Shown here one piece after another: positions 1-64,000 of a DNA stretch of 64,000 nt (the first letter of the stretch is position 1; the number at the start of each line of letters is the position of its first letter). Source of the DNA: Candidatus Latescibacterota bacterium (GTDB lineage Bacteria > Latescibacterota > UBA2968 > UBA8231); NCBI GenBank assembly GCA_965242865.1, contig CBDETK010000013.1, positions 3,904,001 to 3,968,000 on the forward strand. The letters run 5' to 3'. The translations under genes and the position numbers were made by a program. The notes beneath the pieces are model-generated. The model saw only the letters and a list, made by a program, of their open reading frames with translations, did no database searches and was not told the DNA's origin.

Positions 1-377
1 GCATCTACACCGGGCTGACCGTGGTCGAGTATCTGCTGGCGGACGAAGGGCCGGGCGACGGGGGCGTAGCGGTGATACCGGGTAGCCACAAGGCCAACCT
101 CGCCTGTCCGCCGAGCATGATTCGGTGGGAACAGTACCAAGAGCACGTACTCGAAGTAAACGGCAAGGCCGGCGACGCCGTGATCTTCACCGAGACTTTG
201 ACGCACGGGACCCTGCCGTGGACGGCCACCCACGAGCGGCGAGCGCTGCTGTACAAGTTCAGCCCAGGCACCCTGTCTTACGGATCGGGCGCGCACCAGA
301 CGACGTATTCCGACTACATCGAGGACATGACCGAGGAGGAACGGGCCGTGATGGAAGCGCCGCACATTCGGCGGTGA
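1..377 (+). CDS. Phytanoyl-CoA dioxygenase (PhyH) family protein, 5'-truncated by window edge
   Basis: Motifs VIPGSHK, AGDAVIFTETLTHG and RRALLYKFSP are typical of the PhyH 2OG-Fe(II) C-terminal half; stop at 375-377. Confidence 0.8.
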   Translation, partial: IYTGLTVVEYLLADEGPGDGGVAVIPGSHKANLACPPSMIRWEQYQEHVLEVNGKAGDAVIFTETLTHGTLPWTATHERRALLYKFSPGTLSYGSGAHQTTYSDYIEDMTEEERAVMEAPHIRR

Positions 378-412
378 AGCGACGAGGGCCATTCTGAAAA
401 GGAGTTTTTGCG

Positions 413-1294
413 GTGAGTGACAGCACCAGAGATCGTGTTCCAAGAGATCGCGATCTAATAAAGCCGACACTTGATGCCCTCCATCGGCTAGGGGGCAGTG
501 CTAACAATAGAGAAATCGTCAATCAAGTAATTGAAGATATGAGCCTGTCTGCTGCTATCACTCAAGTCCCGTATAGCGGAAAAGCAAATAGGACCGCGCT
601 GGAGGACAAATTGGGTTGGGCGCGAACCTACCTCAAAAAGTACGGTTTGATCGACAGTTCGGAGAGAGGCGTGTGGTCTCTTACTGCTAAAGGGCGGCAA
701 ACACAAGACGTTGACCCTCAAGCAGTTTGTGATTCTTATCATCAAGACCTGAGACAGAAACGAGCTCGCAAACAAACGAAACCTGAGGAAGACGCCTCAG
801 CCGAAGAAATCGAAACTTCAGCCGAGGAGACCGCTTCTTGGCGTGAACATTTGCTCGACACCCTCCGCAACATTCCTCCCGACGCATTTGAACGACTGTG
901 CCAAAAGCTACTGCGGGAATCGGGCTTTATTGAGGTTGAGGTCACGGGAAAATCGAGCGATGGCGGAATCGACGGGCACGGAATAATCCGCCTTGCAGGG
1001 CTGATTAGCTTTCCCGTGCTGTTCCAGTGCAAGCGCTACAGCGGTAGCGTTGGCGCGAGCGTGGTCAGGGACTTTCGCGGCGCGATGGCGGGACGGGCGG
1101 AAAAGGGCCTTATATTGACGACAGGTGGTTTCACAAAAGAGGCTCAACGAGAAGCCACCCGGGATGGAGCGACGCCAATAGACTTGATTGACGGGGACTT
1201 GCTAATGGATAAAATGAAAGAACTCAATCTCGGCGTGTCCGCCAAGATGGTCGAAGTCGTGGAAGTGGACGAGGATTGGTTCGCGTCGATTTAG
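413..1294 (+). CDS. mrr: Mrr-family type IV restriction endonuclease
   Basis: N-terminal winged helix (LGWARTYLKKYGLI..SERGVWSLT); Mrr catalytic domain FERLC..LL..GF, DGGIDG, QCKRY, IDLIDG; RBS AAGGAG upstream of GTG. Confidence 0.92.
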   Translation: MSDSTRDRVPRDRDLIKPTLDALHRLGGSANNREIVNQVIEDMSLSAAITQVPYSGKANRTALEDKLGWARTYLKKYGLIDSSERGVWSLTAKGRQTQDVDPQAVCDSYHQDLRQKRARKQTKPEEDASAEEIETSAEETASWREHLLDTLRNIPPDAFERLCQKLLRESGFIEVEVTGKSSDGGIDGHGIIRLAGLISFPVLFQCKRYSGSVGASVVRDFRGAMAGRAEKGLILTTGGFTKEAQREATRDGATPIDLIDGDLLMDKMKELNLGVSAKMVEVVEVDEDWFASI

Positions 1295-1375
1295 ACAGCT
1301 CAAGGAGTGGAGGATTTGGACTTGCCGAAGACTACGGCAGAGGCGGCGGATTTTCCGACGTGGTATGACCGCGCC

Positions 1376-2362
1376 TCACCCATGTTCTGACTCCGTTCTG
1401 TGCAATATCGTTTCAGTCATTCTTTTGAATTCCATGTAACATTTAGAAACGCTTTGGGCGTGTGAGCCAATGGCACCATCAGCCGGTTTGAGAAAAAAGA
1501 CTGGTTTTCTCGATTCCTGCGCCATGGGCATCAGGCTCTGGTAATGGCGAACTAGCCCCACCTGATTGGAATCGTCGTCTATAGATGTAAAATCTTCTGT
1601 TTGTGCAAGAACGTATTTCAGATACGTAGCCGGTATTCTCTCGACCCAGTTTTGATACGCTTTAACAGGACGCCTTTTTCGCTCGATATGCTGCATGACA
1701 ATATACCCTGCTGGTGTCATTGCGCCGGAGGGCATGTTCAGGTTGTCTGGTTTTTGTTGCAGCCTCTGTTTCCAATCACGACGCCACGTTTTCAGCGTAG
1801 GCCCGAGGTTTTTGAGACCCTGAAGAGAATAGAGGTCAGGAGCCAGAGGGGAGATTACGTAGTCTGCGGCAATCAAGGACGAGCGGTTGATCGCCCCAAG
1901 ATTTGGTCCGACATCAATCAGAACGATATTCGCACCAACCTGCTCAGCAGCCGTATAAATGACCCGGTAAAACGCAGTGATAGCACGGAATGCGGCAGGG
2001 TCACGATCTAAGCAGCGAGGCCAACTGTCCGAGAGCTTATCCTCAAATCGGGACAGCCCAAGATCACCAGGAATCAGGTGCAGGCCGTCCTGAATGATCT
2101 CCGTATGCGCCGGCGCAATATCGCCAGTTCCTTCTAAAATTGGCGAAATACAAGGCAGAATACTCTGGTGTTTTTGCTCCTCCTCCGGCCAGATTTTTTC
2201 CAGTCGCTCTTCATCCAGAAACATGCTCGAAAGATTAGCCTGCGGATCCAGATCAGCTGCCAGTACCTTTTGCTCCAGCTCCATCATCATCCAAGCAATA
2301 TGATAGACCAATGTCGTTTTCCCCACACCGCCCTTGTTATTGAAAAAGGCGATTGTTTTCAT
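1376..2362 (-). CDS. ParA/Soj-like ATPase (long, stand-alone type)
   Basis: Deviant Walker A FNNKGGVGKTT, DLDPQANL, LIDVGPNLG; start overlaps the upstream gene stop (ATGA). Confidence 0.88.
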   Translation of the reverse strand: MKTIAFFNNKGGVGKTTLVYHIAWMMMELEQKVLAADLDPQANLSSMFLDEERLEKIWPEEEQKHQSILPCISPILEGTGDIAPAHTEIIQDGLHLIPGDLGLSRFEDKLSDSWPRCLDRDPAAFRAITAFYRVIYTAAEQVGANIVLIDVGPNLGAINRSSLIAADYVISPLAPDLYSLQGLKNLGPTLKTWRRDWKQRLQQKPDNLNMPSGAMTPAGYIVMQHIERKRRPVKAYQNWVERIPATYLKYVLAQTEDFTSIDDDSNQVGLVRHYQSLMPMAQESRKPVFFLKPADGAIGSHAQSVSKCYMEFKRMTETILHRTESEHG

Positions 2363-3543
2363 GGCTTGGCCTCCAACACCGTTACAAGAAAATAGGATAC
2401 TTGGCTAATATCAAATTCAGCAGGCTGGTTGCCGTTTTTTTGTAGGGCAGCTTGGACTGTCGCTATCCCACGCCCGAACTGATTGACATACGCAAGATTT
2501 TTCATGGCCTCGGCTAGTTTGGGATTCCGGTAATCGTTCTGGTTCGGGAAATCAGCGGCAGCACCGTAAAGCCCGCCCGGATTCTGAATTTCGATCCGAT
2601 CAGAAAACCAATAAAAACGAATCGGTGCATTCGACTGATAGTCGCGATGCATAACCGCATTCATCAGTAATTCGCGAATGGCTCGTCGTGGGTACGGAGT
2701 TACCTGTTTTTCTCGTAACGCGGAGAGCGGAATGGGACGGGATGGAAAGAGCGTTTGCATGAACGCATCTAATGCGTGAAGGCTTGTAGGCAGATCGCCT
2801 GTGAATCTGCGCTCGTCAAGAATGTCAGATTCCAATTCGGCCCCAGCATAGCGGACGTATTGAATATACGAACCTGGCAACCAATTTTGTGGCACTTCCG
2901 AAAACAACAGGGCTCCAGCGTTCGTGACACACTGGTTCTGTACGTCCCATAACCCCAGAGCGGCCATTTGCTGCAATATGTCGCGATTGTTCTCTTCGAT
3001 GGCCTCTGGAGCCAAGGCAGCGTTTCGGTAATCATGGAAGAGTGAATAGACGATCTGATCTTGGCCACAACCAATACAGAGCCGCATATCAAATGTCTTG
3101 GCGCGGTGTATCCGACGCTCGATGAGTATGCGTTCGTCCTGTTCGTTAGCGATGCCCTGACGCGGACCAACTCGGATCCAGACCCGCCCGCGGTAGCGGA
3201 CCGGTGGCATATCAGACGGCTGTACTTCCACCACAGCAATATCGCCTTCGGGGAAAGAGCGTTTTTGAACGGTAAGAGACGGCAGGGGAACAATTTGACC
3301 GGAGTCGCGATGACTGGCAAGACCCTGAAGAAGCTGATCTGTGATCTCAATACCTGCAATTTTTCCGGTTTCATCCTCTGCACCGATAAGCAGATAGCCT
3401 GGTTTTCCGTGATTCGGCAGGTCGTTGGCAAAGGCGCAAATAGCGTTGCAGAATTTGGCCGTATCTTTCGTGGAAACGGTACGCTCCACATTGTCGGCCT
3501 CTATATCTGTCAAAAGAGCCTTGATTTCTTCATCGGTCAACAC
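2359..3543 (-). CDS. AlbA_2 (Schlafen-like) domain + HATPase_c_4 ('RecG C-terminal-like') ATP-binding protein
   Basis: ICAFANDLP..G.LLIG N-terminal domain; YP..AIRELLMNAVMHRDY, DRIEIQNPGGL, YRNPKLAEAM, G.GI C-terminal motifs; probable start GTG 3543 or TTG 3540 after RBS AGGAGAGG. Confidence 0.85.
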   Translation of the reverse strand: MLTDEEIKALLTDIEADNVERTVSTKDTAKFCNAICAFANDLPNHGKPGYLLIGAEDETGKIAGIEITDQLLQGLASHRDSGQIVPLPSLTVQKRSFPEGDIAVVEVQPSDMPPVRYRGRVWIRVGPRQGIANEQDERILIERRIHRAKTFDMRLCIGCGQDQIVYSLFHDYRNAALAPEAIEENNRDILQQMAALGLWDVQNQCVTNAGALLFSEVPQNWLPGSYIQYVRYAGAELESDILDERRFTGDLPTSLHALDAFMQTLFPSRPIPLSALREKQVTPYPRRAIRELLMNAVMHRDYQSNAPIRFYWFSDRIEIQNPGGLYGAAADFPNQNDYRNPKLAEAMKNLAYVNQFGRGIATVQAALQKNGNQPAEFDISQVSYFLVTVLEAKP

Positions 3544-4447
3544 GGGACCTCTCCTTTGGCGAGCAATCAAATGTCCGCGTCAGAAATTTATCCATCGCTG
3601 GAAAGACGGAGTAAAACTTGTCAATCGCAGGAGCGTCCGCCGGGACTGGCAACTCTATCATTTCCGCTCGATCCAGCAGAGACAGGAGTCGCTCAGCGCT
3701 TTGTCGCGGATGTATTTCATCGTCACCCGGCACAAGCATAACCGGGAACGAAATCGAGCGTATATCCTCTTCAGTCAGCCCCGCGGGCCAACTCATCGAC
3801 AAGAGGAATTCACCCCAGCGACGAGTTGTTTCGGCAAACAACTGCGGGTCTAGCGCTAAAACGCGCGCTCGATTGCTTGGATTTCGATAGATCGTTTGTG
3901 CCAACCAAGTGCCTCGTTCAGAGGGTTGCCCCTGCAACTCACCAACCCACGACTCTGTTGACGCATCAATCGCGGCCTGCATCCCCCCACGTTCCGCTAC
4001 TTCTGCGAGACTAAAGCAATGCTTATATACACTGGGTCTAATCAAGGCGGTATCGTCGGTCGGTGGAGAGAGTAGAATGAGCGATTTTACCGCTGCTGGG
4101 TATCGATGCGCCATCCAAAGCGACAAACTGCTACCGGCCGACGCGCCAGCAAAACAAGCGGGTCCCACCCCCAAGTTTCGCAGGAGTGCATAAAGATCCT
4201 CTACGTCTGTCGTCATGTAGTTTGGACTATCCGATAGGGCGACATCAGACGCTCCAAATCCATTGCGTCGATCCCAAATCAGCACGGAGTATTGACGAGA
4301 AAAATGACCCGCCACCAAGTAACTCCATTCGTTGCGGCCAAAGCGACCCCCTTCCGTCCACACCAGCAGCGGTCCTTTACCAAAGACTTCATATACAATG
4401 GACGCACCATTCACAGTCATTGTGGGCATTGATTGTAGGCTGATCAC
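3530..4447 (-). CDS. Alpha/beta fold hydrolase
   Basis: WDRRN.G.S, nucleophile elbow GASAG, D...HP near the C-terminus. Confidence 0.8.
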   Translation of the reverse strand: MISLQSMPTMTVNGASIVYEVFGKGPLLVWTEGGRFGRNEWSYLVAGHFSRQYSVLIWDRRNGFGASDVALSDSPNYMTTDVEDLYALLRNLGVGPACFAGASAGSSLSLWMAHRYPAAVKSLILLSPPTDDTALIRPSVYKHCFSLAEVAERGGMQAAIDASTESWVGELQGQPSERGTWLAQTIYRNPSNRARVLALDPQLFAETTRRWGEFLLSMSWPAGLTEEDIRSISFPVMLVPGDDEIHPRQSAERLLSLLDRAEMIELPVPADAPAIDKFYSVFPAMDKFLTRTFDCSPKERSRVDR

Positions 4448-6315
4448 TTAACGCCGCGCAGTAGGAACACGCGGTCGCTGTTGAAGTAGTTGCCGACCCG
4501 CTCGTCGCGGTACGCACCACCGGCGATCAGCAGGCGGCCGTTGACCGCGGCGGCCGCGCCCCAGCTAACCGGCAGGGGCAGGTCGGGGACGCGACGCCAC
4601 TGACCGGTATCCGGCGCGTAGGCAAAGGCCGCCGTCTGGCCGCTATCGGCCCCTCGACCGCCCATGACCCAGACGCTGCCAGCAAAAGCCGTACACAGCG
4701 GGGCACTCGGAGGGCGCGCCGGATGCTCAATTTGGCTCCAGCTATCACGCTCGGGGTCATAGACGAATAGACCCGGACACTGGGACGAGGGACCGGCGGC
4801 GATGTAGAGCTTGCCGTCCAGAACGCAGCCGCTGGCCTGCGACACGGGGCCGGGCGCGGGCGCGTCAACCCGCCAACTCGTCTCCCCAACCCCAATGCTC
4901 AGGACCTCTGCCATCGGGCCTTCGTCGTCGGCACCGCCCACGGCGTACAACCGGCCATTGACCGCGAGGGCCACTACTTGCCCGGCTTTGCGGGGCAGCG
5001 GCGGCCCGAGACGATAACGCCGCGTGTGGGGATCGAAGATCTCGACGGTCGCGGTCGCCCGCGTCCTGTTGCCGGCGCGGAAGTGCCCCCCTAAAAGCCA
5101 GAGCTCGTCGTTGAGGGCGGCGATGCCGGAATACGCCTTGCCCGGCTCGAGCATGGGCGGCTCCACGCGCCAAGTCCCCGAGGGGATGTGATAGGACCAC
5201 ACGTGGTCGAGGTTTACCCACTCCGACGCTGGCCAGCCGAAGAAGGTCTTGCCCCCGGCCGTGTACAGCCGATCCCCAATGCGAGCAAAGATGTGGTCGT
5301 GATTGCCCGCTGGCATGGGCGGCTGCTCGTCCCAGTGCTCGTGCCAAGGACGTGCGAGGTCGGCAAGACCCTGCACCCGCCCCGCCCTCAACACCCAGAG
5401 GCTACCGGACCGGGCCTGTAGCAACGCCTGCACCGGGCCGTCCTCGCCGGCCTGAATCAGCCGCCAAGCCGGTGGGCCGGCCGCTTCTACAATCAGCTCG
5501 CGCAGGCTGCCATCGGCAAAGCCGACTACGAGCTGACCGGTGCCGCGTGCAATCGCGGTGATGCGGGCATCAACCGGGTTGGCAAAGGAGCGATGAGGGC
5601 CGGACGAGCGGGGATCAACGCGCAAGACAGAGGCGTCCAAGGCCACCCAGATGAAGCCGGCGTCGTCGGTGACAGCACCCTGCCAAGAGCCAGCGAGTTG
5701 ATGCGCCGGCAGGTCGAGGAGCTGCCAGCCGTGGGGATGTTGATTCGTCAGAACGGCTATGTCCCGCCGCTGGCTGTCCTCGGCGATGGCCCACACGTTG
5801 CCGAAGGGGTCGTCGCCCACCGGCGTGATCGCCCACCCGGACGGTGCGGATGGCGCGGGCTCAAACATGGCGTCTCCCCGACGCACCGCACCGCACCCGG
5901 CGCACCAAACGTCGCCCCACCGCGTCGCCAGCAGCGGTCCGGGAGACCCCTTGAGTCGGAAAGAAGGCGTCCGGGCGACCGGCTCTCCGCCCGGACGCGG
6001 AGAGCGCAGGACCTCGTCGTCGAGGGCCAGCCACGCATCCCCGTCCGGGGCAATCTGTAGGCCCTCAACGCGCCCCTGGCCGAAAACCTCCCAAGCGTTG
6101 GCGTCGTCCGGGGTGTTGCGAGCGACGATTCCCCCGGCACCAAGAACGGCGGCGTATATCCGGCCATCGCGGTCTTCGAGGAGGAGGCCCGGCCCGTCGG
6201 GCAAAGTGTCGGCCGCGGCAAGGCCAGCGGAAATGAGCATGAGGCAACCTATTCGATAGAGGAATCGGAGTGCGATGGAATTGAGCAGCATTGTGGCCAG
6301 TTTCTCCGGTTGCAT
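4444..6315 (-). CDS. Secreted beta-propeller protein with C-terminal Kelch repeats
   Basis: Repeated (L/V)Y..GG...W Kelch units (LYTAGG, LWLLGG, LYAVGG, VWVMGG, LLIAGG); N-terminal hydrophobic signal-like segment; exact start uncertain. Confidence 0.75.
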   Translation of the reverse strand: MQPEKLATMLLNSIALRFLYRIGCLMLISAGLAAADTLPDGPGLLLEDRDGRIYAAVLGAGGIVARNTPDDANAWEVFGQGRVEGLQIAPDGDAWLALDDEVLRSPRPGGEPVARTPSFRLKGSPGPLLATRWGDVWCAGCGAVRRGDAMFEPAPSAPSGWAITPVGDDPFGNVWAIAEDSQRRDIAVLTNQHPHGWQLLDLPAHQLAGSWQGAVTDDAGFIWVALDASVLRVDPRSSGPHRSFANPVDARITAIARGTGQLVVGFADGSLRELIVEAAGPPAWRLIQAGEDGPVQALLQARSGSLWVLRAGRVQGLADLARPWHEHWDEQPPMPAGNHDHIFARIGDRLYTAGGKTFFGWPASEWVNLDHVWSYHIPSGTWRVEPPMLEPGKAYSGIAALNDELWLLGGHFRAGNRTRATATVEIFDPHTRRYRLGPPLPRKAGQVVALAVNGRLYAVGGADDEGPMAEVLSIGVGETSWRVDAPAPGPVSQASGCVLDGKLYIAAGPSSQCPGLFVYDPERDSWSQIEHPARPPSAPLCTAFAGSVWVMGGRGADSGQTAAFAYAPDTGQWRRVPDLPLPVSWGAAAAVNGRLLIAGGAYRDERVGNYFNSDRVFLLRGVK

Positions 6316-6322
6316 GGTATAC

Positions 6323-8731
6323 TTACCGCAGCAACAACATGCGGCGGGTTATGACAAAGGAGGAGCCTTCCAGACGGTAGATATAGACACCACTGGCCGC
6401 CTCTTGGCCCCTCTCGTCCTTACCGTCCCAAGCGAGTACGTGCGCCCCGGCCGCAAGATGGCCATCGGTCAGCACACGCACGATCTGGCCGGCTAGGTTG
6501 TAGATAACCAGACGTGTAGGACCGGCCATGTTGGCGGGGATTTGGAAGGAAATTACCGTGGAGGCATTGAAGGGGTTGGGGGCGTTCTGCTGCAAGAAGG
6601 GGCGGGCGGCCTCGGTGCGCAATCGGTACGCTTGTCCCTCGATCACCACCACCATATCCAGACCCAACCCAACAAAAGGAGCCAATGCGTCCGGGCCTAG
6701 AGCGTCGGAGCCGACCTCAACGATGTTCATGCCCAACTGGAACGCTATATCGACCCATAGCGCGTCCTCGCGGTAGAAAGACCGACCGAGCCAAGTCGCC
6801 ATTTCAAATTCGTCCTCCACCGCAGTAGAAACGAACAAATCGCCCACGGCCGAGTCTTCGGTCCCCTCGGGCAGAGGCAAGGGCACTGACACGGTCTCTA
6901 AGCCATCCTCGTTGCGAATGTGGCGGTCAATGGCGACAAAGGAGGTGTACTCGGTTAGCAGGTTGTAAGCCAAGCCTAGCTGCGTGATTTGGGGGCGCAG
7001 GTTGTCGCTGTAACTGGCTTGTTCATCGTCGCTCAGTTGGTCAATGCGGTGGCGTGCCCACAAATAGCGCAGGGCCCTGTTGGTAGGCTTGGCTTGGAAG
7101 GCGGATACATCGAATTGGGCGTTGTACACTTGGTCGCCAGTGCGGCCTCCCAACAGCACCGTGCCTGCGGCCGCGCCGCGCCACTTGCCAAAAACGACGA
7201 TCGGCCGATCGGCCAGCATATCGGGGATGAAGGCCGGTTCCACTTCGTAAGCATCAAAGCCGGCAAAGCCGGCCTCCACTTGGGTGAGGATAGGGGTGCT
7301 GATATAGGTCTGGAAACGAGCGGCCTCGTCGGGGGCCAGTCCTTCTTCAATAACCACAAAAGGCTCGCCTTGGCCGGCCCGGGCGAGGCCCTCAATGAGG
7401 AAGCGGTTGACCGATGAGCCAATGCCAAAGGCAAATAGACTGGCTTGGCCCAAACGCTGGCGCACTAGCTGAAAGGCGGCTGCTTCAAAGCCGACTTTAC
7501 CATCGGTGATCACCGCGATGATACGGGCATAGCCCTCCCCGGCCAAAGGCAGGTTGAAAGCACTGCGGAGCCCACGGAGCAGTTCGGTGCCGCCGCCGCC
7601 CTGTTGACCGTCAATGAGGGCCCAAGCTCGGTCAATATGTTCTTGAGTGGCCGGCAGCGAGCGTTGTTCGCTCAAAACGGCGGCCGCGCCGGCGAATAGG
7701 ACGATGTTGAAGCGGTCTTCGGGACGCAACTGGCCGAGCAGGTTTTTCATCAGACCTTTTGATACGGTGAGGGGGAAGCCCCTCATGGAGCCGGATATGT
7801 CGATTACAAAGATGTATTCGCGCGGTGGGATCTGGCTCGGAACTGGGCGGGCGGGCGGCTGGGCCATGAGCAGAAAGAAATTCTCCTCTTCGCCTTCGTA
7901 CAACAGCAAGCCCGACTCGACCTGTTGACCGGCTAGCTGGTAGCGCAAAATAAAATCGCGGTTGCCGCCAAAACCGTCCGCCGGGTCGAGGGTCAGGCGC
8001 AATTCATCCGGGGCGTCCTGCTCGACGATCACTGCGTGGCTGGGACAATCGTACGCTTGGATGGACAGCCCGGCGGCCAGACACATCTCGATCGCATAGG
8101 TGTAGTTGGGATCTTCGCCCTCGTGCAAATAGGGAATGCGATCGGCGCCGCCTGGGGCCAGAATTTCGTTGACAGCCTCGGGGGAATAGCGCGGACCGAC
8201 CACGGTGGGCAGGACGAATTCGTACTGTTTTTCCGTCGGCACCAATAATTCCGTATAGGACAGGCGCACGGCAATGGAGTCGCCCGGCAGGATATTGGCC
8301 ACGTTCATTCTGAAGACGTTGGGGCGCTCCTGTTCGAGAAGGGAAGCGGTCTGGCCCTGCTCGCGCGCCTCTTCGTATTCCCGACGGGCCTGCTCGCGCT
8401 CGCGGATTTCGGCGGTAATTTCGCGGTCGCCGGTGCGCATCACCATGCCGTACACCGCGGCCCGGGTCGAGGCCGGGAATAGGTACACGGCTTCGAGCGG
8501 GCGAGTGCCTTCGTTGCGATACACCTGCTCGATGGTCACGTCGGCGATGACCCCGGCAATGTGGACTTGGGCAGCCACTGACTTGAGCGGCAGTTGGTCC
8601 ACCGACGGATCATCGGTATCGACGAAGAAGAAAGGAGCTAGGGTCTTGTCGGCTGCGAATGGGGCTTGTTGGGCCGAGGCAGCTACGGTTCCCAGCAGAA
8701 AGACCAATGCAGTGAATCTATGTACGTTCAT
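6323..8731 (-). CDS. Secreted VIT + von Willebrand A domain protein with C-terminal FlgD-Ig-like domain
   Basis: Signal peptide; VIT (LEAVYLFP, ASLLEQERPNVF); MIDAS DISGSM and ITDG; tail QNAPNPFN...WDGKDERG..AASGVYIYRL. Confidence 0.88.
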   Translation of the reverse strand: MNVHRFTALVFLLGTVAASAQQAPFAADKTLAPFFFVDTDDPSVDQLPLKSVAAQVHIAGVIADVTIEQVYRNEGTRPLEAVYLFPASTRAAVYGMVMRTGDREITAEIREREQARREYEEAREQGQTASLLEQERPNVFRMNVANILPGDSIAVRLSYTELLVPTEKQYEFVLPTVVGPRYSPEAVNEILAPGGADRIPYLHEGEDPNYTYAIEMCLAAGLSIQAYDCPSHAVIVEQDAPDELRLTLDPADGFGGNRDFILRYQLAGQQVESGLLLYEGEEENFFLLMAQPPARPVPSQIPPREYIFVIDISGSMRGFPLTVSKGLMKNLLGQLRPEDRFNIVLFAGAAAVLSEQRSLPATQEHIDRAWALIDGQQGGGGTELLRGLRSAFNLPLAGEGYARIIAVITDGKVGFEAAAFQLVRQRLGQASLFAFGIGSSVNRFLIEGLARAGQGEPFVVIEEGLAPDEAARFQTYISTPILTQVEAGFAGFDAYEVEPAFIPDMLADRPIVVFGKWRGAAAGTVLLGGRTGDQVYNAQFDVSAFQAKPTNRALRYLWARHRIDQLSDDEQASYSDNLRPQITQLGLAYNLLTEYTSFVAIDRHIRNEDGLETVSVPLPLPEGTEDSAVGDLFVSTAVEDEFEMATWLGRSFYREDALWVDIAFQLGMNIVEVGSDALGPDALAPFVGLGLDMVVVIEGQAYRLRTEAARPFLQQNAPNPFNASTVISFQIPANMAGPTRLVIYNLAGQIVRVLTDGHLAAGAHVLAWDGKDERGQEAASGVYIYRLEGSSFVITRRMLLLR

Positions 8732-8785
8732 TAGTTATACCTCTCTGGAGTGAGCAGTGCTCAAGGCAGCGCACCGCTTGGCGGC

Positions 8786-9193
8786 TCATCTGTTGTGCCG
8801 CTCGCCATAAGGAACTTCGCACGCCGCATCGGCGCATTCGACCCGGCCGAACCGATGCCGATTGCGTGCGACGAGGGCGTAGCCGGCGCGAAAGAGTTGC
8901 TTCAGCCCCGGAATGCGGTACACCCCGGCGAACCAATGCCACGGCGGAAGCCGGCGATAAATCTGGTACACGGCATCCGCCCCAACATCAACCTGCCCGT
9001 CGGCTTGGATGAGGCGCAGGCCGGTGTTAAAGTCGGAATGGGCGAGGACCGGGAACCGCTCTTCAATGCCGGTCGTTTGGCGCGGCAGGTACTCGAAGCG
9101 GCCGGTGCGGTCAAAGCGGCGAATGCGGCCGACGCTCCACAGGCAGAAGCGGCATTCGCCGTCGTACACGATTACGGGACGAGATTCGCTCAT
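8786..9193 (-). CDS. DCC1-like thiol-disulfide oxidoreductase (DUF393)
   Basis: YDGECRFC (DxxCxxC) and YALVARNRHR motifs; ATG at 9193. Confidence 0.88.
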   Translation of the reverse strand: MSESRPVIVYDGECRFCLWSVGRIRRFDRTGRFEYLPRQTTGIEERFPVLAHSDFNTGLRLIQADGQVDVGADAVYQIYRRLPPWHWFAGVYRIPGLKQLFRAGYALVARNRHRFGRVECADAACEVPYGERHNR

Positions 9194-9256
9194 TTTAAGA
9201 TGCCCTCTGCATTGCAAGTATGACGATTATACCCTTATTACCCGCCACCCGCCACC

Positions 9257-10027
9257 TCAGCACCGCCGCCGCCGGATCATGCGCAGCACCCAATAGGCCC
9301 CCAAGGCCCCGAGCAGGTGCTTGCAAGTATGGCCGCTGATCAATCCTCCGGCCGCATAGAGGGCTTGGTCAAACACCTCGGCGGCTTTCGCGAGCAGATA
9401 AAACAGGCTGGCGACGTAGATATGGGACCCATGCGTGTATGGCGACGGCAGCAGGCGAACCATGAGGGGCACGAATAGAATCGGGTAGGCTTGGGCGACG
9501 ATGTAATACCGGAGGTCTCCGGCCCCGGCCCGCTCGGTATAGTACCAGTACAACACGCTGAAAAGGCCAAAGGCGATCAACGGCAGCAAGGTAATGATGC
9601 CTGCGCGCCGATCGAGACGCTCGGCGATTGCCGTAGCGAGAAACGCCATAAACGCAATGCTCATCGGCAGGCGATCCCACAGGAGCGTTTCATTGCTGGG
9701 CGCGAGGTGATAGTAGGTGGAGCCGAGGCCGACCAGTGCCACCGCGAGGAAGAGGATCTGATAGGCCAGCGAATCGACCGGACGCACAAACGCCTGCTGC
9801 GCGGGATCGGCGGCGAGGCGAAACACGACGCGGAACCCCCACAGCCCGACCAACAGAAAGGGCAGGTTGGAGATCACGTTCAGGCAATGGGGAATGCCCA
9901 GCAGGGTGCGCTGATCGGCGAACTGGTGATAGGCGGGGTCTTGCGGAATGGGTGCTTGCAGGAAGATGACCGCCCAGAAGACGACCGTCAGGTAAGCAAT
10001 CAGCCGGAGGCGGTGATCGCGCTTCAT
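9257..10027 (-). CDS. Ceramidase-domain (alkaline phytoceramidase-like) membrane protein
   Basis: PIPQDPAYHQFADQR, SNLPF, GSTYYH, WDRLPM, SGHTCKH; multiple transmembrane helices. Confidence 0.85.
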   Translation of the reverse strand: MKRDHRLRLIAYLTVVFWAVIFLQAPIPQDPAYHQFADQRTLLGIPHCLNVISNLPFLLVGLWGFRVVFRLAADPAQQAFVRPVDSLAYQILFLAVALVGLGSTYYHLAPSNETLLWDRLPMSIAFMAFLATAIAERLDRRAGIITLLPLIAFGLFSVLYWYYTERAGAGDLRYYIVAQAYPILFVPLMVRLLPSPYTHGSHIYVASLFYLLAKAAEVFDQALYAAGGLISGHTCKHLLGALGAYWVLRMIRRRRC

Positions 10028-10048
10028 TGAGGCTCTAACTTTCCTCGT

Positions 10049-14873: not shown

Positions 14874-14884
14874 TGAATCGTGTC

Positions 14885-56763: not shown

Positions 56764-57735
56764 TTAGGCGCGCAAGTACCCGGCGACCTCTTTGGCGAAA
56801 TACGTCAAAATCATGTCTGCACCGGCTCGCTTGATCCCGGTCAACACCTCCATGATGGCCTGCTCGCGTTCGACCCACCCCCGCTCCGCGGCCGCCACGA
56901 TCATCCCGAACTCGCCGGAGACATTGTACGCGGCAATGGGCACGTCAAAGGCTTGGCGAGCCGCGGCGATTACGTCGAGATAGGCCAGCGCCGGCTTGAC
57001 CATCACCACATCGGCTCCTTCCTCAATATCGAGTGCGATCTCCTTGAGTGCCTCGCGACCATTGGCCGGATCCATCTGATAGCTCTTCTTGTCGCCCTTC
57101 TTGGGCGCCGACTGGAGCGCGTCGCGGAACGGGCCGTAAAAGCACGAAGCATACTTGGCCGAATACGCCAAGATACCGACGTTTTTATAACCGGCCGCGT
57201 CGAGGGCTTGGCGGGTCCCGCGGACCCGGCCATCCATCATGTCGGAAGGCGCGACCCAATCGACGCCCGCTTCGGCGTGTGAAAGTGCCATCTTGCACAG
57301 CACCTCTACGGTCTCGTCGTTGACGACCTCGCCATTGACGACCAAGCCGTCGTGGCCGTGGTAGGTGTAGGGGTCGAGGGCCACATCGGTCTGTACGCAG
57401 AGCGCGGGCACTGCGGCCTTGAGGCTGCGAATCGCTCGTTGGATCAAGCCCTGCGGGTCGTAGGACTGGCTCGCTTCATCGTCCTTTTGAGCCGAGTAGC
57501 CAAAGAGGTTGACCGCTAAGATGCCCAACTCCCACAGCGCGCGGCACTCATCCACCAACTCGTCGATTGAGAAGCGGTATTGGCCGGGCATGTCGTCGAT
57601 GGGAACGCGCACTTTTTCGCCTTCGGTGACGAACAGCGGGCAGATTAGGTCATCAACGCGCAAATGGGTCTCGCGCACCAAGCCGCGCACCGCTTCTGAG
57701 CACCTGAGTCGTCGAGGTCTTTTGGTCAATTCCAC
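56764..57735 (-). CDS. hemB: Delta-aminolevulinic acid dehydratase (porphobilinogen synthase)
   Basis: RPRRLR, DVALDPYT.HGHDG, APSDMMDGR, YSAKYAS.FYGPFRDA, YQMD, MVKPAL.YLD, VSGE. Confidence 0.97.
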   Translation of the reverse strand: MELTKRPRRLRCSEAVRGLVRETHLRVDDLICPLFVTEGEKVRVPIDDMPGQYRFSIDELVDECRALWELGILAVNLFGYSAQKDDEASQSYDPQGLIQRAIRSLKAAVPALCVQTDVALDPYTYHGHDGLVVNGEVVNDETVEVLCKMALSHAEAGVDWVAPSDMMDGRVRGTRQALDAAGYKNVGILAYSAKYASCFYGPFRDALQSAPKKGDKKSYQMDPANGREALKEIALDIEEGADVVMVKPALAYLDVIAAARQAFDVPIAAYNVSGEFGMIVAAAERGWVEREQAIMEVLTGIKRAGADMILTYFAKEVAGYLRA

Positions 57736-58651: not shown

Positions 58652-60397
58652 ATGACCGCCAAAGTCTTCGCCGTCCTCTTCCTATTCGCCGTACCCCTGC
58701 AAGCCAAAACTCGGATTGAAGCCGCTTATGCAGCCGGCGAACTCGACTTGGAGACGGCCCTGATTTACCAAGTCCTCAGCGTGCGCGCTCCCGACCAACT
58801 GCCGGCCTTGTACCGCGAGGCTGGCGAGCGAGCGGTTTGCGGAACCCCGCCCCTAGTCCAAGCCATGAGCGCGGCCCCTGAGTTGAGCGCCGAGTACCGC
58901 GCTCGCGTGGGCAAGCTGGCGCAGCACCGGCCGGCCCTCGAACACAATCTCCTCTCGCCATCGGGGCGCTTTCGCGTCCACTACGATACCCAAGGAGCCA
59001 ACGCGGTTTCGCCGACGGACGACGACGCCAACAACATCCCGGATTACATCGACCTCACGATGGCCGTCCTCGACAGCATTTGGGTGCTCGAAGTCGAAGA
59101 GCTCGGCTACAATCCACCCCCATCGGACAACGGCTTGGGCGGTGGCGACGAATACGACGCGTACGTCGTTGAGCTAAGCGGTCGCTATTATGGGTTCGCC
59201 TATCCTCAGACGGCCGGCGCGACCACCACCCACAGCTATCTCGAAATCGACAACGACTTTACAGACCCGGGCTACAAGCAGACTCGCGGGCTGGACGCCC
59301 TGCGCGTGACCATCGCCCACGAGTTCCATCACGCCATTCAGTTTGGCTACTACGCGAAATTCGACGGCAGTTGGTGGCAAGAATCGACCTCCACTTGGAT
59401 GGAGGAAGTGGCCTATCCGCACATCGACGATTACCTCCAGTACTTGACCTACTTCCTCAGCGAACCCCACCGCGCCCTCAACTCCGGCGTTTATCGCAGC
59501 CTCCACACCTACGGCTCGGCGATCTTTTCCTATTTCCTCGATCAGCGCTACGGCCGCGCCCTCAACCGCCAGATATGGGAGGAAGTGGGCCAGCACCAAA
59601 GCGTCCACCTCGATCACTTCGACCGCGTCCTCCGCCAAGTCGAGCCGGGCGGCCTCGGCAGCGTCGTGGGCGAATTTGCCGTGTGGAACTATTTCACCGA
59701 CAACCGCCACCGCGCCCCATTCTACGCCGAAGGGGACAAATACCCGCCTGTCCCCACCCGCGACCTCGCCGTCGCCGCCGAAGCGGTCGCCCGCGACACC
59801 AGCCTGATCAACGCCACCGGCAGCGTCTATCTGCGTCTCCAGCCGCACCTGCGTCCGGGCGGCGTCGAGCTGTTCTTGGACGCTAACCAAGGGGCTTGGC
59901 GTCGCCACCTGCTTTTGATCGGCCCCGACAGCGTCGCCGTGCAAGCCATCTCCGAGCCGACGGTCCAAATCATCGGCTGGGACCAGTTCGACGAGATCGT
60001 CCTCGTCGCCACCTCGGCCGAGCGCACGGGCTTGACCTACCAGCACTTCTTTACCGCCCAGTTCGATCCCGACCTGATCGCCCCCGACCAATCGGCCCCC
60101 CTCGCCACCCGGCTCAAGCCCAACTACCCCAACCCCTTCCGCCCCGGCCACCACCGGCACACCAAGCTGGCCTTTGACTTAGCTTTTCCCAGCCGAAAAA
60201 CCCGCCTGTCGATATTTTCGGCCAATGGCGATTTGGTTTGGTGGGATGACTTAGGCGAGCGGCGAGCGGACGAATACGCCGTGCGGTGGGATGGGCGCAA
60301 CGCGGCCGGCCATCCCGTCGCCAGCGGCATCTATCACCTGCTCCTCGAAGCCGACGGCACCGCCGCCAAGCGCACCATAGCGGTGGTGCGCGATTGA
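58652..60397 (+). CDS. Secreted zinc metalloprotease-like protein (HEFHH) with FlgD-Ig-like tail, copy 1
   Basis: Signal peptide, CGT, FRVHY, TIAHEFHHAIQF, WQESTSTWME, NYPNPF...WDGRN..G..VASGIY. Confidence 0.82.
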   Translation: MTAKVFAVLFLFAVPLQAKTRIEAAYAAGELDLETALIYQVLSVRAPDQLPALYREAGERAVCGTPPLVQAMSAAPELSAEYRARVGKLAQHRPALEHNLLSPSGRFRVHYDTQGANAVSPTDDDANNIPDYIDLTMAVLDSIWVLEVEELGYNPPPSDNGLGGGDEYDAYVVELSGRYYGFAYPQTAGATTTHSYLEIDNDFTDPGYKQTRGLDALRVTIAHEFHHAIQFGYYAKFDGSWWQESTSTWMEEVAYPHIDDYLQYLTYFLSEPHRALNSGVYRSLHTYGSAIFSYFLDQRYGRALNRQIWEEVGQHQSVHLDHFDRVLRQVEPGGLGSVVGEFAVWNYFTDNRHRAPFYAEGDKYPPVPTRDLAVAAEAVARDTSLINATGSVYLRLQPHLRPGGVELFLDANQGAWRRHLLLIGPDSVAVQAISEPTVQIIGWDQFDEIVLVATSAERTGLTYQHFFTAQFDPDLIAPDQSAPLATRLKPNYPNPFRPGHHRHTKLAFDLAFPSRKTRLSIFSANGDLVWWDDLGERRADEYAVRWDGRNAAGHPVASGIYHLLLEADGTAAKRTIAVVRD

Positions 60398-60530: not shown

Positions 60531-62243
60531 ATGCTTCTGACGCTGGTCATCGGAATAGTGCTCTGTACAGCACATAGCAATCACGCGGAAAGACCGCCCT
60601 CGACCGCGCTGCGCTGCGGCACCCCCTACTTGCTCCGATATATGGACGAGATCACCGAGCACCAGCGTCTAAAACTCGTGCAGCACCGACCTAGCACTCA
60701 GCACAGCCTGTTGACGCCTTCCGGCCATTTCCGCGTCCACTACGACGCTGAGGGCAGCAACGCGGTTGATCGCACGGACGACGATGGCAACGGCATCCCG
60801 GACTACATTGACCTAGCCGCCACTGTCCTCGATAGCATCTGGACGTTGGAAGTCGAACAACTCGGCTACAACCCGCCCCCTTCGGACCATGGCTTGGGCG
60901 GAGGCGACGAATACGACGTTTACATTATGGATTTAAGTCGCGGGGGCTGTGGATACGGGAATGCCGTTTACGGCTGCACTTATCCCGGAACGTCCGATGC
61001 GGTCACCCACAGCTATCTCGAAATCGACAACAACTTCACCGACCCGGGCTACAAGCAGACCCGCGGGCTAGACGCCCTGCGGGTGACCATCGCCCACGAG
61101 TTTCACCACGCCATTCAGTTCGGCTATTATGCACACGGGGCCGGTAACTGGTGGCAGGAATCGACCTCGACGTGGATGGAGGAAGTGGCCTATCCGCACA
61201 TCGACGATTACCTCCAGTACTTGACCCATTTCCTCGGCGAACCCCACCGCGCCCTCAACTCCGGCCGTCTCGGCAGCCTCCACACCTACGGCTCTGCCAT
61301 ATTTTCCCACTTCCTCGATCAGCACTACGGCCCCGCGCTCGAACCCCTGATTCGGGAAGAATTGAACCAGCATCCACCGGAGCTTATCGCGTTGCGAGCA
61401 CGGGCGCATCTCAACCGCCTGATTTGGGAAGAAATCAAGGAGCACCAAAGCGTCCACCTCGATCACTTTGACCGCGTCCTCCGCCAAGTCGAGCCGGGCG
61501 GCCTCGGCAACGCCGTGGGCGAATTTGCCGTGTGGAACTATTTCACCGACAACCGCCACCGCGACCCATTCTACGCCGAAGGGGACAAATACCCGCCTGT
61601 CCCCACCCGCGACCTCGCCGTCGCCGCCGAAGCAGTAGTCCGCGACACCAGCCTGATCAATGGCACCGGCAGCGTCTATCTGCGTCTCCAGCCGCACCTG
61701 CGTCCGGGCGGCGTCGAGCTGTTCTTGGACGCCAACCAAGGGGCTTGGCGGCGTCACCTGCTCTTGATCGGCCCCGACAGCGTCGCCGTGCAAGCCATCT
61801 CCGAGCCGACGGTCCAAATCATCGGCTGGGATCAGTTCGACGAGATCGTCCTCGTCGCCACCTCAGCCGAGCGCACGGGCTTGACCTACCAGCACTTCTT
61901 TACCGCCCAGTTCGATCCCGACCTGATCGGCCCCGACCAATCGGCCCCCCTCGCCACCCGGCTCAAGCCCAACTATCCCAACCCCTTCCGCCCCGGCCAC
62001 CACCGGCACACCAAGCTGGCGTTTGACTTAGCTTTTCCCAGCCGAAAAACCCGCCTGTCGATATTTTCGGCCAATGGCGATTTGGTCTGGTGGAATGACT
62101 TGGGCGAGCGTCGGGCGGACGAATACGCCGTGCGGTGGGATGGGCGCAACGCGGCCGGTCACCCCGTCGCCAGCGGCATCTACCACCTGCTCCTCGAAGC
62201 CGACGGCACCGCCGCCAAGCGCACCATAGCGGTGGTGCGCTAG
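60531..62243 (+). CDS. Secreted zinc metalloprotease-like protein (HEFHH) with FlgD-Ig-like tail, copy 2
   Basis: Same motifs as copy 1; 3' half nearly identical at nucleotide level. Confidence 0.82.
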   Translation: MLLTLVIGIVLCTAHSNHAERPPSTALRCGTPYLLRYMDEITEHQRLKLVQHRPSTQHSLLTPSGHFRVHYDAEGSNAVDRTDDDGNGIPDYIDLAATVLDSIWTLEVEQLGYNPPPSDHGLGGGDEYDVYIMDLSRGGCGYGNAVYGCTYPGTSDAVTHSYLEIDNNFTDPGYKQTRGLDALRVTIAHEFHHAIQFGYYAHGAGNWWQESTSTWMEEVAYPHIDDYLQYLTHFLGEPHRALNSGRLGSLHTYGSAIFSHFLDQHYGPALEPLIREELNQHPPELIALRARAHLNRLIWEEIKEHQSVHLDHFDRVLRQVEPGGLGNAVGEFAVWNYFTDNRHRDPFYAEGDKYPPVPTRDLAVAAEAVVRDTSLINGTGSVYLRLQPHLRPGGVELFLDANQGAWRRHLLLIGPDSVAVQAISEPTVQIIGWDQFDEIVLVATSAERTGLTYQHFFTAQFDPDLIGPDQSAPLATRLKPNYPNPFRPGHHRHTKLAFDLAFPSRKTRLSIFSANGDLVWWNDLGERRADEYAVRWDGRNAAGHPVASGIYHLLLEADGTAAKRTIAVVR

Positions 62244-62332
62244 ATAGCAGAAGCCGTCGCCGTGTATCCGACGCTTTTGGAGGAGGTTGGCGGATATTGA
62301 CACCCAAACCCCTACTTACTTATGCTTGGGAT

Positions 62333-62581
62333 ATGCGAATAACATTGACTATTGACGACGACATCGCCGCGCAATTAGAGGACATCCGTCGCAGCGGTAA
62401 GGGCAACTTAAAGCAAATCGTCAACGATCTTCTGCGCACTGGGCTCAAAGGAGCCAATGTCCAGCGACAGGCCCGCCATACTCACCGCACCAAGGAAGTC
62501 CGGTTGGGAGGTTGCCTGATCGATAACATTGACGACGTTGCTCAAGCCCTGTCCATTGCAGAGGGAGAAGACGCTCAGTGA
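62333..62581 (+). CDS. vapB: VapB-type (ribbon-helix-helix) antitoxin
   Basis: MRITLTIDDD...KQIVNDLLR.GL; GTGA overlap with the PIN toxin. Confidence 0.82.
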   Translation: MRITLTIDDDIAAQLEDIRRSGKGNLKQIVNDLLRTGLKGANVQRQARHTHRTKEVRLGGCLIDNIDDVAQALSIAEGEDAQ

Positions 62582-63018
62582 GGCTGGTCGATGCCAACCT
62601 CTTGGTATATGCCCATGTCGCCGACTTCGCCCAACACCGCACTGCACTCGCTTGGCTCGACGACAAGCTAAACGACACAACGCCACTCGGCCTGCCGTGG
62701 TCCAGCCTGCTGGCATTTGCCCGTCTAGTATCCAATCCCCGCATTTTTGAACGCCCCGAATCCATAGAAATAGCTTGGCAACAGGTCGAGTCTTGGCTCG
62801 ACGCGCCCGCTAGCTGGATACCGCTGGCCACCAGCCGCCACCGGAAAGTCCTAGCCCAGTTACTTAAAACACAGGGCCTGCGTGCCAACCACATACCCGA
62901 CGTCCATCTCGCGGCACTCGCCATTGAGCACGGCTTGACCCTTTGCTCTACCAACACTGTCTTCGCCCGCTTTCCCGACCTGAGTTGGGAAAATCCCCTC
63001 GTCAACATAGAGTTCTGA
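62578..63018 (+). CDS. vapC: VapC-family PIN-domain toxin
   Basis: LVDANLLVYA, F.RL..NPRIF, D.HLAALAIEHG, FARF; the last acidic PIN residues read STNTVF rather than the usual D.DF. Confidence 0.88.
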   Translation: MRLVDANLLVYAHVADFAQHRTALAWLDDKLNDTTPLGLPWSSLLAFARLVSNPRIFERPESIEIAWQQVESWLDAPASWIPLATSRHRKVLAQLLKTQGLRANHIPDVHLAALAIEHGLTLCSTNTVFARFPDLSWENPLVNIEF

Positions 63019-63021
63019 ATT

Positions 63022-64000
63022 TTGTCTGCACCCCCGCGCCGCGTCTCCCTCCGCGCCATTGCCATCGGAGCCATCGGCTGCCTCGCCATCGCCGTGGGCG
63101 AACCCTTTGGCGTCTTGGTGATGCAAAGCTCGCCCATGGCCGCCGACTACTCGACCGGCGCGGCCCTCTGCTTGTTTTTCCTTTTTACCCTGCTCATCAA
63201 CCCGCTCGCCCAATGGCTCACCGGCTCCAGCCTGCACAGCGGCGAATTGGCTACCGTGTACATAATGATGGTCGTGGGGGCCGCCATTCCCTCTTGGGGC
63301 CTGACCATGAACCTGATCCCGCTCCTCGGCGGGTTCTTTTATTACGCCACCCCGGAAAACGACTGGGCCAACACCATCCAGCCCTATATCTCGCAGCTCC
63401 TCGTGCCGGAAGACAGCGCGGCCATCCAAAAGCTGTTTGAAGGCAAGGCCCAAGGCGAACGCATTCCTTGGGGCGCTTGGACCACGCCGCTTGTGGCGTG
63501 GAGCTTGTTTGTCGTCAACATGTACTTCACCACGCTGTGCGTGCTCGTCGTGCTGCGCAAGCAGTGGGTCGAGCGCGAGCGGCTCAATTTTCCGCTGGCC
63601 ACCTTGCCCATAGCAATGAGCACCCACGCCAAGGACCGAGCTGTCGCGCCCTTCTACCGCAATTACCTGACTTGGGTCGGCTTTGCCATCCCCGCGCTCA
63701 TCGGCTCCATCAACGCCCTGCACCGCTACTTCAACTTCGTCCCCCCGATCGACCTCAACCTCTGGGTGCCCTTTTTGCGCCGCTCTATCTGGGTCAACTT
63801 TCGCCCGCACTTTGAGGTCGTCGGCCTCTCCTACTTGCTCAACCTCGACATCTCCATGGGCGTGTGGTTCTTCGCCTTGCTCAACATGCTGGCTATCGGC
63901 TTGTGCCGCATGACCGGGTGGAACATCGGCCCGGAGCAGCCCTATTCTTCGCCTTCTCCGCCCAGCCTCGCCCACATCGCCCTCGGGGCGTTGTTCTTTC
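63022..64000 (+). CDS. Polytopic membrane protein (DUF6785-like), 3'-truncated by window edge
   Basis: Open frame from TTG 63022: MSAPPRRVSLRAIAIGAIG...ELATVYIMM...YYATPENDW...LRKQWVERERLNFPLA; missing from the ORF track because it has no stop within the window. Confidence 0.78.
   Translation, partial: MSAPPRRVSLRAIAIGAIGCLAIAVGEPFGVLVMQSSPMAADYSTGAALCLFFLFTLLINPLAQWLTGSSLHSGELATVYIMMVVGAAIPSWGLTMNLIPLLGGFFYYATPENDWANTIQPYISQLLVPEDSAAIQKLFEGKAQGERIPWGAWTTPLVAWSLFVVNMYFTTLCVLVVLRKQWVERERLNFPLATLPIAMSTHAKDRAVAPFYRNYLTWVGFAIPALIGSINALHRYFNFVPPIDLNLWVPFLRRSIWVNFRPHFEVVGLSYLLNLDISMGVWFFALLNMLAIGLCRMTGWNIGPEQPYSSPSPPSLAHIALGALFF

Follow-up and report, generated by a model that had tools for sequence, protein, structure and literature searches.

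Erosion of CCWGG sites in a clade of Candidatus Latescibacterota, with a probable origin in unrepaired Dcm-type cytosine methylation

Results

A stretch of 64,000 bp from Candidatus Latescibacterota bacterium (contig CBDETK010000013.1, positions 3,904,001-3,968,000 of the forward strand, assembly GCA_965242865.1), here called the window, retains only 24 copies of the pentanucleotide CCWGG (W, A or T), 12 CCAGG and 12 CCTGG. The loss is specific for one cytosine position and one transition, depends on the reading frame, is distributed by clade, and contrasts with the loss of other palindromes in the same genomes. At sites of Dcm/EcoRII-type C(5mC)WGG methylation, the inner 5-methylcytosine (5mC) deaminates to T, and without the very-short-patch repair protein Vsr the resulting T:G mismatch is not returned to C:G. 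We consider it probable (at roughly 0.7) that unrepaired Dcm-type C5 methylation drove the erosion of CCWGG, with the enzyme, its mark on the DNA, and a lack of repair all inferred from sequence.

The base composition of the window (GC content 58.3%) predicts 97.6 + 94.7, about 192, CCWGG sites. A maximal-order Markov model predicts 127, giving an observed/expected ratio (O/E) of 0.19 (z -12.2), and no other 5-mer is as depleted. Shuffling synonymous codons within the 51 curated genes of the window, which are also the source of the codon contexts below, predicts 208.6 sites against 22 genic sites observed (z -15.3); this null fixes codon totals and is relied on for site and frame counts only. 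The initial annotation of the window had estimated about 20-30 sites where some 200 would be expected, in good agreement with these counts; O/E is 0.11-0.19 instead of near 1, and the eight positions named there are all real (264, 2067, 6075, 8151, 13610, 25184, 32946, and 45285).

The loss had also been described as window-wide, which it is. The window consists of housekeeping genes with high GC content at third codon positions (GC3) and, between them, three lower-GC defense islands (Table 1). Every segment is depleted, the islands included (O/E 0.06-0.39). Compared with the zero-order expectation, 4 sites remain of 70.0 in segment 43704-64000 (O/E 0.06), 2 of 27.9 in 4448-12111, 6 of 48.0 in 25029-38653, and 5 of 26.5 in the Bacteriophage Exclusion (BREX) island at 12112-25028. 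Island genes use CTG in 0/69 and CAG in 3/44 cases where the codon is preceded by C and followed by G (the C_G context). The low-GC islands are purged of CCWGG in synonymous frames, and their base composition is not ameliorated.

An excess of the four pentamers produced by deamination (CTTGG, CCAAG, CCTAG, and CTAGG) had been claimed as well. This stands for the first pair (CTTGG 184 + CCAAG 156 = 340), for which 138 are expected at zero order and 251 under the Markov model (z +8.3). The second pair (CCTAG 29 + CTAGG 28 = 57) has an O/E of 0.41 at zero order and of about 1.1 under the Markov model, with 53 occurrences against 50.0 under codon shuffle, and for it the claim fails in absolute terms and holds only relative to a sister clade described below. 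The codon examples that had been quoted (58747, 58768, and 58852-58862) are exact in sequence and reading frame. A Markov excess of CCTGC/GCAGG, CCAGC/GCTGG, and ACTGG/CCAGT was discarded, being forced by the CCWGG deficit itself.

Within genes, CCWGG can lie in three frames, CCW-GGN (F1), NCC-TGG (F2), and xxC-CWG-Gxx (F3). Observed and shuffled counts are 12 and 19.8 in F1 (O/E 0.60), 3 and 35.2 in F2 (O/E 0.09), and 7 and 152.2 in F3 (O/E 0.05). The corresponding values are 3 and 8.6, 1 and 25.1, and 4 and 109.5 in core (high-GC3) genes, and 9 and 11.3, 2 and 9.7, and 3 and 43.8 in low-GC3 genes. The CCW-GGN frame, in which deamination alters the protein (Pro>Leu or Gly>Ser/Arg), thus holds 12/22 of the surviving genic sites.

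In F3, Leu is encoded by CTG in only 3/274 cases in the C_G context, compared to 189/495, 149/510, and 256/838 in three control contexts, and Gln by CAG in 4/108 cases, compared to 118/195, 126/201, and 211/351. Usage of CAA reaches 104/108 in the C_G context versus 292/747 elsewhere, and usage of TTG 90/274 versus 353/1843. The codon shift is therefore tied to the C_G context, as the initial annotation had proposed, and is not a general preference. TTA, the double-transition codon, is also enriched (16/274 versus 15/495, 29/510, and 27/838 in the control contexts), which may reflect that TTG and CTA are over-populated and that TTA is their one-step transition neighbor.

The same losses could be ascribed to plain restriction-site avoidance. 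Under this explanation, a long-lived orthodox type II restriction-modification (R-M) system cutting CCWGG (EcoRII, MvaI or PspGI-like) would select against the site through occasional self-restriction, and the products would simply be the available synonymous changes. It is true that Gln has CAA as its only synonymous alternative anyway. However, avoidance should turn NCC-TGG mainly into NCG, the commoner alternative at baseline. NCN codons before TGG end in C in 3/72 cases, in T in 45/72, in G in 20/72, and in A in 4/72, whereas before other codons starting with T the counts are 307/680, 115/680, 177/680, and 81/680, respectively. The T share rises from 17% to 62% while the G share stays at 26-28% and A declines (T versus A+G among non-C codons, odds ratio 4.2, p=1e-7). 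The replacement is the transition product NCT and not NCG. Avoidance would also have a synonymous escape through the outer C (xxC>xxT), but this is unused: codons ending in T make up 53/275 of the non-C codons before CWG-G and 132/467 before CWG-H, and TCWGG|CCWGA occurs 230 times against 250 expected by codon shuffle.

A search with HemB identified metagenome-assembled genomes (MAGs) as the nearest public relatives of the window, titled mostly Candidatus Latescibacterota and in some cases Gemmatimonadetes. All ten loci with HemB identity of at least 90% (L001-L009 and L015) are depleted, with CCWGG O/E of 0.00-0.50 relative to composition and CCAAG/CTTGG at 2.0-2.7 times composition. Together with the window, they form one clade in the HemB tree, a single-gene tree (support 100/98), which is sister to L010-L012 (HemB identity 83-86%). 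In this sister group CCWGG O/E is 1.00-1.33 and CCAAG/CTTGG is at 0.87-0.98. Codons before TGG follow the same division, with NCT in 84/181 and NCC in 22/181 cases in the ingroup, and in 5/54 and 41/54 in the sister group. The distant relatives L016-L020 have CCWGG O/E of 1.46-2.26, CCAAG/CTTGG at 0.26-0.65, and CTAG-containing pentamers near zero; they keep C-CTG-G in 215/323 and NCC-TGG in 56/73 cases, with NCT-TGG in 1/73. The Markov O/E of CTAG is 0.78-0.82 in the depleted clade, 0.55 in the sister group, and 0.14 in L016-L020, the gene-level search for vsr having covered the window only. The E. coli-type footprint (CCWGG at or above expectation, CTWGG/CCWAG and CTAG depleted) is thus found in L016-L020 and not in the window, and suggests that these distant relatives carry Dcm plus Vsr.

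Compared with the sister clade, the depleted clade has 288 fewer CCWGG per 100 kb and 340 more inner-C transition pentamers (595 versus 256, ratio 2.33). All other single-substitution neighbors of CCWGG have ratios of 0.89-1.25, with the outer-C transition at 0.89, so that the losses are not spread over all five positions. Both product pairs roughly double, CCAAG/CTTGG from 200 to about 466 and CCTAG/CTAGG from 56 to about 115 per 100 kb, and all four predicted products are in excess relative to the sister clade. The CTAG-containing pair is the smaller one, probably because CAG>TAG creates a stop and because CTA and AGG are poor codons.

The sister clade also provides the baseline for F1 and for Leu. 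Plain avoidance should purge CCW-GGN sites, because CCW>CCS is synonymous and favored by codon bias. Nevertheless, CCW stands before GGN in 33/167 and elsewhere in 507/2087 cases in the depleted relatives, a ratio equal to that of the undepleted sister group (12/64 and 178/797), the two groups for which this comparison was made. In the ingroup, F1 thus stays essentially at the baseline level. For Leu, a rise of CTC to.42-.48 had seemed to indicate that the lost CTG was redistributed in proportion, and thus to favor plain avoidance. This was ruled out, as CTC already accounts for.47 in the C_G context of the sister clade and therefore represents a baseline codon-pair bias; the lost CTG went to TTG, CTA, and TTA. 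Usage in this context changes from CTG.26, TTG.13, CTA.05, TTA.05, CTC.47, and CTT.04 in the sister clade to CTG.01, TTG.34, CTA.09, TTA.06, CTC.46, and CTT.04 in the window. Only TTG, CTA, and TTA, and not CTC or CTT, took up the loss (135:136 in the window and 50:112 in the sister clade, p=1.3e-4).

In nanopore data, methylation of a motif is known to cause consensus errors. Long-read assemblies with systematic base-calling or assembly mistakes at methylated CCWGG could in principle mimic the depletion, and several of the relatives are indeed chromosome-level assemblies. However, depletion is seen alike in these and in assemblies with short-read-style (SPAdes/MEGAHIT) contig names (L002, L005, L009, and L015, O/E 0.00-0.30). 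Errors would also strike all frames, creating TAG stops from CAG as well as Pro>Leu replacements, whereas the curated genes have no internal stops, the changes are synonymous, and F1 is spared. On these three grounds the artifact was rejected, and we assign it a negligible probability.

Blastn alignments of the window to five outgroup loci provided the polarization against relatives that the initial annotation had suggested. At 25 distinct positions the window faces an outgroup CCWGG, and none is conserved (0/25). Among the 14 single differences, 9 are inner C>T, 2 inner C>G, 2 outer C>G, and 1 central, whereas the analogous class accounts for 1/8, 1/10, and 1/25 in control pentamers and 7/21 in the CpG-containing CGWCG. 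Likewise, the window retains 0/23 of the CCWGG occurrences of ingroup relatives (counted without deduplication between relatives), compared to 127/195 for CCSGG, 110/221 for GCWGC, 22/75 for GGWCC, and 306/409 for CGWCG. CCWGG sites therefore turn over fast. Because the unameliorated low-GC islands are already purged (F3, 3 versus 43.8) and sites turn over this fast, we infer that the process continues, or did so until recently, in the lineage of the window.

One member of the depleted clade, L003, departs from this pattern, with CCWGG O/E of 0.50, NCC-TGG in 12/35 cases, F3 sites in 13/129, and CCAAG/CTTGG still 2.1-fold. In L003, and also in L004-L006, this looks like partial re-accumulation after the activity was lost or weakened there.

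CCWGG is not the only palindrome missing. At least a dozen 6-bp palindromes that are near normal in L010-L012 are avoided in the depleted clade, among them CAGCTG, TCCGGA, GTCGAC, GGCGCC, TTCGAA, GTGCAC, AAGCTT, ACGCGT, GATATC, CTCGAG, and AGGCCT. This favors plain avoidance, given O/E values of 0.04-0.07 for CAGCTG, 0.10-0.15 for GTCGAC, and about 0.2 for GGCGCC (TCCGGA, 0.00-0.19), as do the defense islands and two N6/N4-type methylases in the window. The replacement patterns nevertheless differ. Before GCC, the Gly codon GGC of GGCGCC falls from.60 to.08, and GGA/GGG/GGT climb from.10/.18/.12 to.20/.46/.26 (about 2- to 2.5-fold); in GTGCAC, GTG falls to 0/66 and GTC, GTA, and GTT climb together. 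Proportional replacement of this kind is what selection acting on the site should produce; it is not seen at CCWGG. Since plain avoidance is visible at GGCGCC and GTGCAC in the same genomes, the two signatures are separable. Other hexamers are less clear: GTCGAC is mixed (GTT.12 to.40, GTG.32 to.38), TTCGAA and CAGCTG have a single synonymous alternative each, and C>T neighbors are in 1.9- to 2.8-fold excess for GTCGAC, CTCGAG, and GTGCAC, with an excess of C>T products also at TTCGAA. Some avoided hexamers may therefore be 5mC-driven too.

Discussion

The scheme that we favor starts from a resident Dcm/EcoRII-type DNA cytosine-5 methyltransferase that would make C(5mC)WGG. Deamination of 5mC to T would leave a T:G mismatch that is not efficiently returned to C:G, Vsr-type repair being presumably absent or ineffective. 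Over the history of the 11-lineage clade, this drain would have removed sites wherever C>T or G>A is synonymous, along the routes NCC-TGG to NCT-TGG, C-CTG-G to C-TTG-G or C-CTA-G, and C-CAG-G to C-CAA-G, while purifying selection on proteins would have kept the CCW-GGN sites. Under a two-state equilibrium, the inner C would mutate to T about 40-50 times faster than comparable cytosines on both strands, as estimated from odds ratios of (45/3)/(115/307) = 40 for F2, (104/4)/(292/455) or about 40 for Gln, and (90/3)/(353/594) or about 50 for TTG/CTG of Leu.

Several observations weigh against this scheme. No C5-methyltransferase or Vsr gene was found in the window, in searches of 54 ORFs against Pfam and 18 further ORFs against NCBIfam and in a PCQ-type motif scan that covered the window and all 80 loci. 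In the window F1 is about 2-fold low (12/82 versus 277/958, p=0.0046), which goes beyond the prediction of a pure mutation model. CCTAG/CTAGG are without absolute excess. Judged from this genome by itself, Leu codons other than CTG look close to a proportional redistribution in the C_G context, and the deamination-specific Leu pattern appears only against the sister-clade control, with genes of the relatives called by a simple codon-score open reading frame (ORF) picker. The polarization counts are small and the synonymous sites partly saturated (11/25 positions with multiple differences). Finally, these genomes are clearly under selection against restriction sites, which may contribute to the loss of CCWGG. 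Although the standard reading of missing type II sites in the literature is selective (as in the part of PMC4687349 used here), we regard avoidance as quite unlikely to explain the erosion: as its main cause it is contradicted by the F1, F2, and outer-C data and by the contrast with GGCGCC and GTGCAC, and the 2-fold F1 deficit of the window leaves room for a contribution, which it may have made.

The two methylases of the window were considered as the CCWGG C5 enzyme and rejected, both being of the N6/N4 type (PglX of the BREX locus, 17854-20187 with 20214-20651, and 42179-43327). For the latter, an N4-methylcytosine (m4C) specificity for CCWGG, as in MvaI or PspGI, is conceivable. An m4C enzyme is not expected to give C>T. 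As the source of a clade-wide trait this gene was ruled out in any case, since it sits in a low-GC island.

Inner-C hypermutation might also have arisen by another route, either enzyme-catalyzed C-to-U conversion by a CCWGG C5-methylase under low S-adenosylmethionine (SAM) or the past action of a methylase that the lineage has since lost. When SAM is lacking, C5-methylases are able to deaminate the cytosine that they target, as reported for M.SssI in the part of PMC3804486 used here. The footprint of 5mC>T and of C>U>T would be the same. On the other hand, U:G is normally well repaired by uracil glycosylase. For the lost methylase, the partial recovery in L003 (NCC-TGG 12/35, O/E 0.50) is as expected after loss of activity, but the recent-looking low-GC islands are already purged in synonymous frames and 0/23 sites are common to close relatives and the window. 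We judge this group of alternatives unlikely, and unrepaired deamination of 5mC made by a resident methylase is retained.

In vertebrates, deamination of 5mC depletes CpG and increases TG and CA. CpG depletion of this kind, mentioned in the part of PMC2390760 used here, differs from the present case in that it involves eukaryotic maintenance methylation and a dinucleotide, instead of a 5-bp bacterial type II-like motif under codon constraints. A closer parallel is the 5mC motif ACGT of H. pylori (M.Hpy99XI), described in the part of PMC10423294 at hand as depleted mainly by deamination to ATGT/ACAT. As with CTWGG/CCWAG here, there are two transition variants, the events are mostly synonymous, and the frame distribution is shaped by purifying selection. 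Judged from that same part, however, motif and phylum differ, the methylase has been identified there and is a putative one here, the loss is deeper here in synonymous frames (O/E about 0.05-0.1), and the trait is fixed across species-level lineages here but varies among the populations of one species there.

In V. cholerae, the VchM target RCCGGY has a deficit of about 30% (2172 versus 3197), read as an avoidance "strategy" in the portion of bioRxiv 10.1101/070839 considered here. The same portion notes that C5-methylase motifs are under-represented in genomes without VSR, with C>T / G>A proposed as the cause. Under-representation of a C5-methylase target, a putative one here, is common to both cases, without Vsr there and with Vsr presumably lacking here. 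Yet, as far as that portion goes, the deficit here is much larger, at 5- to 20-fold, and the tests on position, frame, and sister clade argue for mutation pressure over selection on the site. E. coli, with Dcm and Vsr, shares the motif and the four product pentamers with the window but has the opposite sign, CCWGG being about 26% over-represented (Bhagwat and McClelland, 1992, as cited in the same portion of 10.1101/070839); L016-L020 show the E. coli-like pattern. The standard account of palindrome avoidance is selective, and the word "deamination" does not occur in the part of PMC4687349 considered here. A strongly under-represented short palindrome in a genome rich in defense genes resembles type II restriction-site avoidance as presented there, and GGCGCC and GTGCAC do fit it, unlike CCWGG with its replacement pattern and spared F1. 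Methylation-driven motif erosion has already been described; what is new here is an extreme, clade-wide CCWGG case. Neither a published CCWGG depletion of such depth nor a methylome of this clade was found in the open-access literature searched.

Tentatively, this clade may represent a natural, long-running "dcm-plus, vsr-minus" experiment, in which an approximately 40-fold site-specific mutation pressure, and not selection, rewrote codon-pair usage across at least 11 species-level lineages, with related lineages showing the opposite Vsr over-correction; part of what is scored as restriction-site avoidance in defense-rich genomes of this kind might then likewise be mutational. In that case, past methylation and repair in uncultured lineages could be reconstructed from sequence footprints alone, and mutation pressure by itself could bring a bacterial methylase target close to extinction. 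The triple signature, specific for transition, inner position, and reading frame, would be diagnostic in separating methylation-driven erosion from selective avoidance within one genome. This uncultured lineage is predicted to encode a C5-methylase for CCWGG, to lack vsr, and to carry 5mC at its remaining Pro-Gly sites, where Pro>Leu, Gly>Ser/Arg, and nonsense mutations would be concentrated. In this regard, annotation and work on codon usage should allow for a mutational origin of codon-pair biases such as NCT-TGG at 62-72%.

Gene content of the window

Scans with Pfam, PADLOC, and NCBIfam describe an ordinary bacterial chromosome segment. Table 1 lists its main features together with individual CCWGG sites and converted examples.

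Table 1. Positions of genes, segments, CCWGG sites, and product pentamers in the window.
Feature	Position	Strand	Remarks
CCWGG sites	264, 2067, 2873, 3398, 6075, 8151, 13610, 21627, 21643, 22350, 24605, 25184		
CCWGG sites (continued)	27522, 28304, 28645, 32946, 34004, 41196, 41724, 42452, 45285, 50096, 53199, 53243		
Surviving F1 site (Pro-Gly)	8151-8155	-	Both deamination products non-synonymous
CTTGG in GAC-TTG-GAG	58747-58751	+	Converted F3 example; gene 58652-60397 (+)
CCAAG in TAC-CAA-GTC	58768		Example of the initial annotation
CCTAG (58852) and CCAAG (58858) in CCC-CTA-GTC-CAA-GCC	58852-58862	+	One outgroup has CCAGG at 58858
CCAAG in hemB	57678-57682		CCAGG in 4/5 outgroup relatives; polarized inner-C transition
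Similar polarized case	55126		3 outgroups
Similar polarized case, CTTGG	59394		3 outgroups
Similar polarized case, CTTGG	57207		2 outgroups
hemB	56764-57735		High-GC3 housekeeping gene
Largest native high-GC3 gene block	43899-64000		Most strongly purged segment
Further high-GC3 blocks	4448-12111 and 25029-38653		Behave like 43899-64000
Low-GC defense islands	1-4447, 12112-25028, 38654-43703		
Mrr-type restriction enzyme	413-1294		Type IV, methyl-directed
ParA-like ATPase	1376-2362		Adjoins the Mrr-type gene
Schlafen/AlbA_2 protein	2359-3570		Weak matches to models associated with prokaryotic Argonaute (pAgo)
BREX-type locus	12112-25028	-	Pfam, PADLOC
BrxA	12112-12672	-	
PglZ	12873-14957	-	
349-residue ORF without assigned function	14885-15934	-	Between pglX and pglZ
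NsnB/OLD-like ATPase	15931-17850	-	Between pglX and pglZ
PglXI/pglX methylase, two ORFs	17854-20187 and 20214-20651	-	Different frames, overlap at about 20214-20289
BrxC	20690-24445	-	
BrxF	24510-25028	-	
HerA-like ATPase	38654-40855	+	Low-GC island
478-residue ORF	40746-42182	+	Same island as the HerA-like ATPase
N6/N4-type DNA methylase	42179-43327	+	HerA-like island
HigA-like helix-turn-helix protein	43332-43703	+	HerA-like island

The Mrr-type methyl-dependent nuclease of the first island must coexist with whatever methylation the genome carries. In the BREX-type locus, the split pglX is an apparent frameshift that could reflect a pseudogene, phase variation, or an assembly error. The four-gene HerA-like island may constitute an R-M-like module to which no specificity is assigned; its 478-residue ORF has no match in Pfam, PADLOC, NCBIfam, or PDB sequences.

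The phylum labels of some MAGs appear to be inconsistent: L002, L010, L011, L013, and L014, close relatives inside HemB clades with good support, are titled Latescibacterota, Gemmatimonadetes/-ota, or Planctomycetota.

Two mandelate racemase/enolase-family ORFs on the minus strand, 25032-26432 and 49055-50953, have conserved domains starting at about residue 138 and about residue 281 of the longest ORF. Their true starts probably lie well downstream, or else the upstream parts are separate genes. The genes at 58652-60397 and 60531-62243 (+) are tandem paralogues, about 78-88% identical in parts, each with a C-terminal FlgD Ig-like domain that is possibly a C-terminus of the secretion-sorting type. 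The VIT/VWA protein at 6323-8731 has the same C-terminal domain.

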